Origin: Candidatus Nomurabacteria bacterium RIFCSPHIGHO2_12_FULL_42_19
Lineage (GTDB): Bacteria > Patescibacteriota > Minisyncoccia > Phycocordibacterales > UBA9973
Assembly (NCBI GenBank): GCA_001786955.1
Contig: MFUM01000004.1
Coordinates: 4,457-68,456, forward strand
Length of the DNA: 64,000 nucleotides
Direction: 5' to 3'
The position numbers and the translations under genes were made by a program. The notes under the pieces were generated by a model. That model searched no databases. It saw only the letters and a list, made by a program, of their open reading frames with translations, and had not been told where the DNA came from. The first letter of the stretch is position 1; every line of letters begins with the position of its first letter. Shown one piece after another: positions 35,431 to 38,391 of the stretch.

Positions 35431-35513
35431 TTTATATAAACTATTAAGCTAATAATGATCTAATCATACAAGTTAAGAACTTATATATCAATCTCCGCCA
35501 GCTTGGCGTTGGA

Positions 35514-35957
35514 TTATTTTGTTGCATCGTAATCTTCAATATTCTCTTCAATAAAAGAATTTATTATATTCATAATATTATGTCTTTCTTCTGGTTTGCT
35601 TTCAGCAACTTTACAGGCAAATTGATAGATATCTTGGTTGGGAGTAGAGAGCCATTTGCCATTTTGAACAAGAAAAAATAGCAGTGTTGTAACTGCAATT
35701 CTTTTATTGCCGTTTTGAAAGGGGTGATTTTTTACCATCAAATAAAAGAGTATTGCTGATTTCCCGATAAGGCCTTCGTATAAACTTTTTCTATCAAAAG
35801 TTTGAAATGGTGTTGCAATACAACTTTCCAATTTATCTGGAAAACGCGTTTCAAAGTCAGGAATTGGTTCATTCCATTCCATAAATTCCTTGGCGAGTTG
35901 AAAAGCGATATATTCCACATCTGCCAGATTAATACGTTTAATCGTTTGACGTGCCAT
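35514..35957 (-). CDS. doc: Fic/Doc-family protein (Doc-type toxin motif HPFQNGNKR)
   Basis: HPFQNGNKRIAVT matches the Doc/Fic motif HxFx(D/N)GNKR. Confidence 0.7.
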   Translation of the reverse strand: MARQTIKRINLADVEYIAFQLAKEFMEWNEPIPDFETRFPDKLESCIATPFQTFDRKSLYEGLIGKSAILFYLMVKNHPFQNGNKRIAVTTLLFFLVQNGKWLSTPNQDIYQFACKVAESKPEERHNIMNIINSFIEENIEDYDATK

Positions 35958-35967
35958 AAAATTTTAA

Positions 35968-36252
35968 TTATTCTTTTCCGAGTTTTCGCAATGCGGGACC
36001 ATATTTCTTTACCACACGCTTAACAACATCTTCTATATCCTTTTTGCGACGATCTGGCACAAAAACGCCTAAAATGGTCTCATATTCTTCTCTTGGAATA
36101 ATATAATTTCTTCCAATTTTTTCAGCATGTATTTGGCCTGACCGAATCTTCTTAAAAATAGCAACTCTGGAAACACCAAGAAGTTTCGCTATTTCCGGCG
36201 CAGAAAAGTACTTTTTGCTCTCTCCTTCAAAAATATGCTTATTTTTCAACAT
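35968..36252 (-). CDS. Small helix-turn-helix DNA-binding protein (excisionase/MerR-like), putative antitoxin partner of Doc
   Basis: APEIAKLLGVSRVAIFKKIRSGQI looks like a HTH. It sits 10 nt upstream of the doc-like gene on the same strand. Confidence 0.5.
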   Translation of the reverse strand: MLKNKHIFEGESKKYFSAPEIAKLLGVSRVAIFKKIRSGQIHAEKIGRNYIIPREEYETILGVFVPDRRKKDIEDVVKRVVKKYGPALRKLGKE

Positions 36253-36291
36253 ATATATAGGTTAACATATGTTAACTCATAAATCAATGGG

Positions 36292-38391
36292 CTAGATATC
36301 AATCTCCGCTAATTTTGCATTTGATTGGATGAAAGATTTGCGGGGAGGGACTTCGGAGCCCATGAGGATGTCAAAGATTTTATTCGCTTCCTCTGCATCA
36401 GAAATATCCACGCGCTTGAGAACGCGATGTGCGGGATCCATCGTCGTCTCCCAGAGTTCTTCCGGATTCATTTCACCGAGACCTTTGAAACGCTGGATAT
36501 GTATTTTGTTAGGTTTAGCCCCGACGTTCTCCTCAGGAGAAGTCGGAGTCCCGACCCCTTCAGGCGTCGGGAGTTCTTCCACTTCCTGTATTTCACTCAC
36601 GTCCGCGTTCTTGCCGACAATTTTTATTTTTTCATTATCGGTGTATGCGTAAGAAATCTCTTTCCCCTTTTTTATTTTATAGAGTGGTGGCTGGGCAATA
36701 TAAATATACCCGGCATCAATCACTTGCCTGAAATATCTGTAGAAAAGAGTCAGAAGCAATGTACGGATATGTGAACCGTCCACGTCGGCATCGGTCGCAA
36801 TAATTATTTTATGATAACGAATTTTCTCCAGGTCAAAAGTATCCCCGATAGATGTGCCCATCGCAATAACTAAAGATTTAACTTCTTTGGAAGCAAGCAT
36901 CTTATCTATGCGCGCGCGCTCCACATTTAAAATTTTTCCGCGTAGTGGCAATATCGCCTGGGTGCGGCGGTCCCGTCCTTGTTTTGCCGAACCGCCTGCC
37001 GAGTCTCCTTCCACTAAGAATAATTCCGATTCTGAAGCATTTTTGCTTTGGCAGTCTGCCAATTTTCCGGGCAAAGTCATCCCCTCAAGCGCACCCTTGC
37101 GAAGCACTGAATCCTTGGCTGCCTTGGCCGCTTTGCGGGCCTTTAGGGCCAGAATTGACTTGTTTATTATAGATTTGGCGTCATCCGGGTTTTCTTCCAG
37201 AAAGTTCGCGAATCCCTCGCCGAATACGGTCGCCACGGCGCCCTGAGCTTCCATGCTTCCCAATTTTCCCTTGGTCTGCCCTTCAAATTGTATCTCGCGA
37301 AGCTTGACCGAAATAACTACCGTCAAACCTTCCAGGACATCTTCGCCCGTAAATCCGCCTTCGGACTCTTTCATCATTTCATTTTTCTTACAGTAGGTGT
37401 TGAGCGTTCTGGTAAGCGCCGTCTTAAAACCGGTTACATGCGTCCCGCCCTCCTGGGTGAAAATATTGTTGGCGAAAGGGAAAATCCTGTCCACGATATC
37501 ATCCACATACTGCAGGGCTATCTCTACTCCCACGCCATCCAGTTCTCTTTCAATATAAAAAATATTATTCTGGACCGGTTTGACAAATTTATTGTAATAC
37601 TTTACCAGAGAAATCAGTCCGCCTTCAAAATAGAAAGCAACAGAGGGAAGCTCAAGCCCAAGTTCGCGGAAATAAAATACATCCTCGTCATTGAGCCCCT
37701 TTTTATCGTCCCAGCCGCGGGCGTCAATTATTAAAATCTTCAATCCTTTCACCAAATAGGCTTGTTGGCGAATGTGGCTGATGACCGTGTTCCAGTCAAA
37801 TACAATCTTACCAAAAATTTCCTGGTCGGGCTCAAAAGTAATTATGGTTCCGTGCATCTTTGATGCCCCGTTTTTTTTTACAGCGAACTTTTTCTTGCCT
37901 TTAGAATATTCTTGAATATATTTTCCGCCATCCCTATGCACTTCCGCCTTGCAATAGATGGAAAGCGCGTTTACCACCGATGCGCCGACTCCGTGTAAGC
38001 CTCCGGAAACTTTATACCCGCTATTTTCGCCGCCGAATTTTCCTCCGGCATGCAGCGTCGTCATCACGGTTTCCAGCGCGGAAACTTTTGTTTTTTTATG
38101 CATATCCACCGGAACGCCCCGGCCGTTGTCCGCCACGCGAATACGGTTGCCCGGAAGAAAAACAATTTCAATGTCATTGCAAAAACCTCCCATCGCCTCA
38201 TCGCGGGAATTGTCAAAAATCTCCCATATTAAATGATGAAGCCCTTCCGGCCCTGTAGTGCCAATATACATGCCTGGACGGCGCCTGACGGGCTCCAGGC
38301 CCTCTAGAACGGATATGTCAGAGGCATCATAATGGTGCCCTTTTTCGGCACCTTTTTTTGCTCCTTTTTCGTCTTTTCCTCCCTTTGCCAT
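36292..38391 (-). CDS. gyrB: DNA gyrase subunit B (type IIA topoisomerase ATPase subunit)
   Basis: GHKL ATPase N-terminus, TOPRIM ([10 protein letters not shown]) and C-terminal [21 protein letters not shown] are present. It carries an in-frame GC-rich insertion in the C-terminal linker. Confidence 0.9.
36520..36590. repeat. GC-rich palindromic element, family C (..gtcggagtcccgacccc..), in frame inside gyrB ([16 protein letters not shown])
   Basis: A 16-nt core is the reverse complement of the intergenic copy at 12136-12168. Confidence 0.6.

Follow-up and report, generated by a model that had tools for sequence, protein, structure and literature searches.

The gyrB-thrS interval and its duplicated gyrB terminus

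The DNA considered here is a window of 64,000 nucleotides (nt) from contig MFUM01000004.1 of Candidatus Nomurabacteria bacterium RIFCSPHIGHO2_12_FULL_42_19, an uncultured groundwater bacterium. Within this window, the convergent genes for DNA gyrase subunit B (gyrB) and threonyl-tRNA synthetase (thrS) are separated by a two-gene cassette, encoding a helix-turn-helix (HTH) protein and a Doc protein, that lies between two copies of the gyrB 3' end. The gyrB gene (36292..38391, minus strand) encodes a 699-aa product in which the HATPase_c, DNA_gyraseB, Toprim, and DNA_gyraseB_C domains were all above the Pfam threshold, and its synteny is conserved. Its final 10 codons and stop codon, here called the working tail, occupy 36292..36324 on the minus strand and read TCA AAT GCA AAA TTA GCG GAG ATT GAT ATC TAG, with AT-rich third positions; the sequence of this allele is TCAAATGCAAAATTAGCGGAGATTGATATCTAGCCCATTGATT. 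The second copy, here called the orphan tail, lies at 35481..35513 on the minus strand and reads TCC AAC GCC AAG CTG GCG GAG ATT GAT ATA TAA, with GC-rich third positions. It abuts the doc stop codon, its first base being the one that follows this codon, and is in frame with doc; together with its spacer, the orphan allele has the sequence CAATCCAACGCCAAGCTGGCGGAGATTGATATATAAGTTCTTAACTTG.

Both tails encode the same 10 residues and a stop codon (11/11). They are identical at 25/33 nt, and the 8 differences, which fall in 7 codons, are all synonymous; an identical 14-nt core, GCGGAGATTGATAT, lies inside the pair with differences on both sides of it. A repeat search returned the pair as 34 nt of 79% identity at a spacing of 811, the longest direct repeat of the region, and the 11-residue tail peptide was found at only these two sites in the six frames of the window, while 200 shuffled windows gave a single match at >=8/11. 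An earlier note on this DNA had described a second copy of the last ten gyrB codons after the doc stop, and this was borne out by direct reading, by the repeat search, and by an exact search; the alignment that it proposed gave an identity far above chance. Its coordinates for the gyrB copy, 36287-36320, were about 5 nt off, and the correct span is 36292-36324. The arrangement was not confined to one assembly. A 1131-nt region was identical in nine loci from four different records (contigs), drawn from independent samples in ENA and JGI, and the arrangement was fixed within the population of the window: it recurred, with no empty site, on all contigs examined (24 per search) that encode an exact copy of Doc, GyrB, or orf70, the last being an open reading frame (ORF) between the orphan tail and thrS. 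An assembly artefact was thereby ruled out, and the broader proposal that chance similarity or an artefact explains the pair, for which nothing speaks except that AT-rich DNA is of low complexity, is given a negligible probability.

When 8 random substitutions were simulated, 0 of 2,000,000 trials preserved the tail peptide. Since all 8 differences are synonymous, the pair cannot be a duplicated transposase target that later decayed in situ, and the earlier note's target-duplicating insertion cannot be kept as worded. Placing all of the changes in the working copy would require that the orphan, though unconstrained, had stayed unchanged while the majority of the synonymous positions in the working copy were replaced. 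Most simply, the tails are read as two alleles of gyrB, each of which diverged as the working end of gyrB in a different lineage. Both resemble real gyrB ends among loci of related genomes and metagenome contigs, which are designated here by L-numbers: the orphan tail matched those of L006 and L009 at 31/33 and 30/33 nt, and the working tail matched those of L016 and L097 at 31/33 and 30/33 nt. In keeping with the earlier note, the ten-codon remnant thus looks like a genuine gyrB terminus.

The HTH_17-Doc cassette between the tails

The 39 nt that follow the gyrB stop codon (36253..36291, minus strand; CCCATTGATTTATGAGTTAACATATGTTAACCTATATAT) form the control region of the cassette, presumed to hold the promoter and operator of the HTH protein gene. 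They include a perfect 16-bp palindrome, GTTAACATATGTTAAC, at 36261-36276, which was unique in the window, with no second copy there and 0 occurrences expected by chance. This control region, TTGATTTATGAGTTAACATATGTTAACCTATATAT-ATG, was kept together with its palindrome upstream of the HTH gene in 12 cassettes, some of them only ~60% identical, and to judge from this conservation it marks the left edge of the cassette; we regard the palindrome as a putative operator and the control region as a putative promoter. The HTH gene (35968..36252, minus strand) encodes a 94-aa DNA-binding protein of the HTH_17 or excisionase type and is the antitoxin candidate. It matched PF12728 at 32.6 bits (cut-off, 27) and TIGR01764 at 33.6 bits (cut-off, 28.8), whereas neither Pfam nor NCBIfam gave a Phd/YefM match, and no relative was found in the PDB. 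The gene stops 10 nt before doc (35514..35957, minus strand), which encodes a 147-aa Doc (death-on-curing, Fic fold) toxin matching PF02661 at 42.6 bits (cut-off, 24) and TIGR01550 at 56.9 bits (cut-off, 38.65); in the PDB, the sole match at E <= 0.01 was a weak one (9vzc, E = 0.002). The sequence HPFQNGNKR is intact at residues 78-86, with H78, F80, N82, G83, N84, K85, and R86 invariant in 31 homologues, and agrees with HxFx(D/N)(A/G)N(K/G)R, the established Doc-type Fic motif. Since the closest Doc homologues (72-88% identity) are 146-147 aa long and end in the same C-terminal lysine, doc has not been truncated by the orphan tail.

More than 5000 Doc homologues were found, mainly in Patescibacteria, and an HTH homologue stood directly upstream of doc at 80/80 of the metagenome loci fetched with the Doc profile. 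Given the conserved control region and the conserved pairing of the two genes, the cassette is a tight unit that runs from the control region to the doc stop codon. Sliding-window GC content was 0.32-0.37 across it versus ~0.41-0.51 in the flanking genes. Its two proteins showed only the HTH_17/excisionase-type and Fic/Doc domains, with no recombinase or transposase domain in Pfam or NCBIfam, and no terminal inverted repeats were found at the ends of the block. The earlier note had also proposed looking for the cassette elsewhere; the window holds no second copy. Many of the close Doc homologues were located on contigs of just ~0.9-1.5 kb, and assembly breaks are expected at segments that are strain variable or repeated.

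With both genes matching their families above the cut-offs, the block is an HTH and Doc toxin-antitoxin cassette, as the earlier note had called it, and from the sequence the pair most likely works as a type II toxin-antitoxin system. Doc is a Fic-fold kinase, and in the paradigm of phage P1 it phosphorylates EF-Tu and blocks translation. A comparable toxin activity is predicted for this Doc, and antitoxin activity for the HTH_17 protein, which would neutralize Doc and repress the operon through the 16-bp palindrome; the conservation of this palindrome hints at autoregulation. The cassette shares with the Phd-Doc system of P1 (TIGR01550 family) the Doc/Fic domain and its motif, a small partner gene upstream (here 10 nt away), and a palindrome in the control region. 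Unlike in that system, the partner is an HTH_17/excisionase-type DNA-binding protein and not a Phd/YefM antitoxin, which places the cassette outside the Phd/Doc family in the strict sense.

The locus in relatives and flanking repeats across the cassette family

The order pheT-gyrB-[gap]-thrS(convergent)-L32-nusB was kept in most of the 80 related genomes that formed the comparison set, with a gyrB-thrS gap that ranged from -4 to ~4700 nt. Empty sites, at which the stop codons of the two genes abut or overlap, were found in L003 and L170 (both at 91% GyrB identity) and in L008, L014, L019, L023, and L060, and relatives at 82-91% GyrB identity had a single gyrB tail abutting thrS. The first six of these sites answer the empty-site check of the earlier note, and relative to them the cassette is an insertion. 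Elsewhere the gap held sortase, CARDB, Trp-repressor-like, UDG, Ham1, Maf, NUDIX, and other small genes, with 120 singletons among 201 ORFs, and it is a general cargo hotspot. Of the Pfam families matched by 114 gap ORFs, 25 were listed and none was an integrase; 45 single-member families fell outside this list. A motif regular expression was also negative. The cassettes closest to that of the window (75-87% Doc identity) likewise lie between gyrB and thrS, in L090-L097, L174, L177, and L179. At these loci the spacer after gyrB varies (4 to 42 nt, or extra genes), and no gyrB remnant follows doc, with the one exception of L177; gyrB-HTH-Doc without a remnant, as in L090, L091/L174, L097, and L179, is a potential donor-type arrangement. 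The earlier note had considered that its reading would fail if relatives shared the arrangement with no empty sites and if the repeat were no better than chance. Several relatives do share gyrB-HTH-Doc, but empty sites exist and the repeat is above chance.

Orphan gyrB tails were also detected in at least four other lineages (L067/L047, L081, L177, L071, and L020). Those of L067 and L047 are 33 nt long and lie ~50 nt behind the gyrB stop codon, and in this clade the orphan resembles the working tail of a relative, L076. The orphan of L081 is 24 nt long. In L177, a second cassette-bearing Nomurabacteria lineage with an orphan tail, the orphan measures 19 nt (4394-4414), follows the HTH-Doc genes and a dCMP deaminase gene, and abuts a convergent gene of 102 aa. 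Short orphans of the form AGCGGAGATTGATAT.TA. occur at L020:2690-2710, L071:8205-8225, and, decayed, L012:8016-8036, beside a Trp_repressor-family gene that is accompanied by a palindrome of its own, TTAGTATATCATATATGATA. These orphans directly adjoin the next convergent gene and probably represent one old displacement event seen in three species. The L020 orphan is identical to its own working tail. Across all events, namely, the window and four further lineages, the codons that differ between working and orphan tails were synonymous in 25/25 cases, with the reading register of L081 set by hand. The orphans of L020, L071, and L177 abut the 3' end of the convergent gene in the same way that the working gyrB end abuts thrS at empty sites, and the pieces in L177 and L020/L071 have almost identical starting points, (A/G)GCGGAG. 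Heterogeneous cargo accompanies the orphan tails, comprising a toxin-antitoxin cassette, a deaminase gene, a Trp-repressor-like gene, and a bare hairpin. This recurrence supports the view that the orphan is the ancestral terminus left in place and that cargo and a new tail were inserted upstream of it. The hairpin, CCCCGTAGTCAGCTTTGCTGTACTGTGGGG, is 30 nt long and lies behind gyrB at L067:7104-7185 and L047:4533-4617, with TCCAAC at either end; an older orphan tail of seemingly ~12 codons (ATTAATCCAAC...GCCAAACTAGCTACCATTGATATTTAA) surrounds it, and it looks like a small element inserted into the orphan with a 6-bp duplication.

We compared the 400 nt upstream of the control region with the 400 nt downstream of the doc stop codon in members of the cassette family, with 330 random 740-nt pseudo-cassettes from comparable loci as controls. 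Significant direct repeats made of host DNA, 25-126 nt long, flanked 14/64 distinct, testable cassettes versus 4/330 controls (Fisher p = 4e-9), an excess of ~20-fold. In addition to the window, the positive loci included L109, with a repeat of 126 nt (123 identical), L126 with 119 (97), L168 with 66 (55), L142 with 64 (54), L149 with 55 (45), L105 with 51 (45), L148 with 40 (36), L108 with 39 (32), L137 with 34 (33), and L166 with 29 (29). The repeats were derived from the 3' end of the upstream gene (L109, L108, and the window), from the 3' end of the convergent downstream gene (L168 and L166), or otherwise from intergenic or terminator DNA. The repeats of different cassettes are unrelated in sequence and vary in length and in distance from the cassette, and thus they are attributable neither to a transposase, which leaves a fixed short duplication, nor to one site-specific recombinase, which requires a common core.

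At one of these loci, L148 and L147/L143 (3691-8420) share a stretch of 99.8% identity that starts 13 nt to the left of CCATTGAC, spans the cassette, and continues for 4 kb beyond it. Upstream of this stretch they are unrelated, with an 806-aa ORF (by eye, a restriction-modification methyltransferase) versus a 1043-aa gene. This switch from identity to unrelatedness places a strain-level breakpoint right at the left edge of the cassette. Use of these loci as a before-and-after pair was rejected because the upstream difference is an unrelated rearrangement.

Origin of the duplicated gyrB tail

We consider it slightly better than an even chance that the feature is a recombination scar, in which the cassette was acquired from a relative by means of a homologous anchor and the resident gyrB 3' end was displaced. 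In the ancestral layout, still seen in several relatives, the convergent gyrB and thrS stop codons would have touched. The cell would then have taken up, perhaps by transformation, DNA of another, related Nomurabacteria lineage in which HTH_17-Doc already lay right behind gyrB. On the left side the incoming strand would have paired with the resident gyrB, and at the right end, just past the doc stop codon, illegitimate joining would have taken place at a point ten codons short of the stop of the resident gene. Thereby the incoming tail would have become the working tail and the resident tail the 33-nt orphan pushed downstream. Scars of this kind would collect where gyrB meets a convergent essential gene because an insertion is viable there only when it supplies a gyrB tail itself. 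An orphan 3' fragment indeed lies downstream of new cargo, and the two copies are different alleles, as in displacement by homology-facilitated illegitimate recombination. The GC content at third codon positions (GC3) was 0.70 for the orphan tail and 0.56-0.60 for the 50 preceding codons of the resident gyrB, versus 0.30 for the working tail and 0.24-0.29 for the cassette genes, so that the orphan is resident-like and the working tail cassette-like; this correspondence is only weakly suggestive.

Several observations weigh against this displacement. The GC3 values carry little weight, since L016, L012, L010, and L071 likewise have AT-rich SNAKL codons after a GC-richer gyrB. The microhomology at the joint between the doc stop codon and the orphan amounts to ~2 nt (AA). 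No donor or near-identical relative was found, and among 5.8 billion proteins there was no GyrB above 91% identity except the protein itself; thus there is no recent before-and-after pair. Sliding nucleotide identity against 17 relatives showed no recombination breakpoint in gyrB, a comparison that is uninformative because these relatives are too distant. With neither donor nor breakpoint, the direction of transfer is not proven. Divergence of the cassette and of GyrB is weakly congruent (r = 0.39), and vertical inheritance with losses is therefore inseparable from exchange. The 272-nt spacer that follows the orphan tail was seen in no relative. Finally, the downstream repeat begins exactly at the doc stop codon in the window and in L148, L166, and L168, which are independent cassettes, and the upstream repeat ends at CCATTGA in several cassettes; such tidy ends are not predicted by random illegitimate joins.

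A further reading holds that HTH_17-Doc is itself a mobile unit with defined ends, from CCATTGA before a -35-like box to the doc stop codon, which would enter by long, variable target duplications and leave via the repeats, with the HTH protein also serving as a recombination-directing factor. We hold this to be improbable; if true, a toxin-antitoxin pair would be an autonomous, integrase-less mobile element in genomes of the candidate phyla radiation (CPR). A circle with the cassette and one copy of the gyrB tail, looped out of a donor in which repeats flanked the cassette, could instead have been transferred and have integrated by a single, Campbell-type crossover in the recipient gyrB tail, leaving two hybrid repeats. 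The identical 14-nt core with differences on either side, and the repeats that sit tight against the cassette ends in the window, L148, L166, and L168, as a circle of cassette and repeat alone would leave them, agree with this, as do the allelic differences and the reuse of the same locus, and such a life cycle was proposed by Kobayashi's group for restriction-modification units (PMC2853133). Yet 14 nt of identity is very short for a RecA-dependent crossover, the GC3 values, weak evidence as they are, favor whole tails over reciprocal hybrids, and in most relatives whose cassette sits at gyrB there is no second repeat through which a circle could loop out. No circles were seen. We judge the circle unlikely, and with it the junction that it predicts, doc stop to CCCATTGA via a single gyrB-tail copy.

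The same core has been weighed as the attB of a site-specific integration by a recombinase acting in trans, in which a gyrB-like attP would rebuild the gene. Besides the core, the near-identical starting nucleotide of the orphans in L177 and L020/L071 and the membership of the HTH protein in the excisionase DNA-binding family are in its favor. As in integrase-mediated islands that occupy the 3' ends of tRNA or protein genes, the repeats rebuild the 3' end of the target and contain an identical core; unlike in those islands, there is no integrase in the cassette, nor was one among the listed gap families above, there is no core common to the cassette copies, and repeat length is variable. The same-site cassettes in L090, L092, L096, L174, and L179 lack a second core, those at other loci have unrelated repeats of 25-126 nt, and the cargo at orphan tails is heterogeneous. 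This proposal is improbable, being less likely than the Campbell-type circle, and the site-specific insertion of the earlier note falls on the same evidence: the closest same-site cassettes lack the remnant, repeats elsewhere are unrelated and variable, and no recombinase is present. No tRNA, tmRNA, or Rfam RNA was matched as a target, and no GC-skew switch pointed to a replication terminus or dif site. An in-place duplication, whether by a template switch in replication or as a target-site duplication of the transposase kind, would have made copies that were identical at birth and diverged later. The geometry of [repeat][insert][repeat] fits, and near-identical repeats occur at other cassettes (L109, 123/126; L166, 29/29; L137, 33/34), but the differences in the window are synonymous in 8/8 cases with the orphan peptide intact, an outcome that the simulation did not produce, and confining the changes to the constrained copy would leave the neutral copy unchanged. 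Repeats of 25-126 nt together with the lack of terminal inverted repeats and of a transposase domain also set the feature apart from a transposon or insertion sequence, and we consider duplication in place very improbable. The same structure would result from a mirror event, a further point against the displacement, in which the cassette is an old resident behind gyrB and the inserted piece is a foreign gyrB tail plus the 272-nt spacer, anchored in thrS by homology. The gyrB-HTH-Doc adjacency is widespread in the clade with variable cargo between doc and thrS, and the spacer is unique to the lineage of the window. Against this, the orphans of L177, L020, and L071 keep the ancestral position next to the convergent gene with cargo upstream, and GC3 is resident-like in the orphan and cassette-like in the working tail; we think the mirror event decidedly unlikely.

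Among published processes, insertion with long target duplication combined with homology-facilitated illegitimate recombination fits the proposed displacement best, by analogy. The former was reportedly described for restriction-modification gene units by Nobusato et al. in 2000. Insertions of restriction-modification units with a long, variable target duplication and no mobility genes are known mostly from naturally competent species, with repeats that frequently extend over the 3' end of a neighboring gene (Furuta, Abe, and Kobayashi 2010, PMC2853133). The cassette resembles these in being a small addictive unit without mobility genes, flanked by long, variable, target-derived direct repeats that are often taken from the 3' end of the neighbor and that are commoner than around average genes, and in having empty sites in relatives. 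It differs in that the cargo is a toxin-antitoxin pair in a patescibacterial (CPR) host and in that the repeat of the window, at 33 nt versus a threshold of >30 bp, is 76% identical with purely synonymous changes, whereas the published repeats are mostly near-identical. By the definition of Furuta 2010, direct repeats of >30 bp from the target are thus present as a borderline case, the 33 nt of the gyrB 3' end, and the insert holds no mobility gene; the relatives that have one gyrB tail against thrS do not share the 272-nt spacer. A combination of one-sided homologous and illegitimate recombination has been put forward as the source of orphaned 3' ends in rhs, contact-dependent inhibition (CDI), and type VI secretion system (T6SS) loci (PMC5361080). 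There too, cargo is placed behind a conserved 5' anchor, the old 3' end is orphaned downstream, and the two copies come from different alleles; here, however, the displaced piece is the tail of an essential housekeeping gene without a function of its own rather than a toxin tip with an immunity gene, and no arrays of successive orphans were seen in the window. Natural competence has been shown in Patescibacteria (PMC10633639).

The reading of this locus accordingly shifts from the site-specific or target-duplicating insertion of the earlier note to a scar composed of two gyrB alleles, of the long-target-duplication or 3'-end-displacement kind. It would illustrate a way for cargo to settle in a genome of extreme compactness even where the ends of two essential convergent genes meet, namely, when the incoming DNA brings the gene end with it. 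Because the divergence is synonymous only, the scar is a clean marker of recombined DNA from a related lineage, a kind of gene flow that is hard to demonstrate in uncultured Patescibacteria, and it provides a signature, easily read from sequence, by which recent gene gain could be spotted in metagenome-assembled genomes. In the literature that we retrieved, the long-target-duplication route is described only for restriction-modification genes; the ~20-fold repeat excess suggests that it also operates for toxin-antitoxin modules. Whereas the single locus is a modest curiosity, the family-wide excess and the repeated orphan tails raise it to moderate interest.

The right border of the variable gap is formed by thrS (33403..35208, plus strand), whose ORF (601 aa, TTG start) is 10 codons longer, at 33403-33432, than the public call (591 aa). 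The lineage-specific spacer between the orphan tail and thrS (35209..35480, minus strand) contains orf70 (35218-35430), which matched only itself among 5.8 billion proteins and had no homologue in any fetched locus; its use as a conserved gene, or as evidence of an ancestral neighbor, was dropped. Ahead of orf70 lies a promoter-like TTGATA-17-TATGAT (35491-35463), part of which is formed by the orphan tail. Inside orf70, a 24-nt patch (35320-35343) resembles the doc codons for ESKPEERH at 21/24 nt and scored above 1000/1000 shuffles. Doc and HTH profile hidden Markov models were empty in every flank, and hhalign gave a probability of 5%; the patch is too weak to claim a relic of an older cassette behind the orphan tail. 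Among the relatives, GyrB contains an intein in some cases (1125-1129 aa; PF14890, Intein_splicing), as in L179/L180 (gene 1-3155) and in protein P0194. A conserved gap protein of ~225-231 aa occurs at L005:7694-8389, L011:8559-9236, and L027:7672-8352 and resembles, by eye, a REP-associated tyrosine (IS200-like) transposase (YHIYNRGN...MPNHFHI); it is absent among the Pfam families listed at E <= 1e-4, and this identification is unconfirmed. Downstream of gyrB in L004 (8538-9185) lies an ORF that, also by eye, resembles a LAGLIDADG-like homing endonuclease (VIGVIATDGNLS...GCIDGDGSI).

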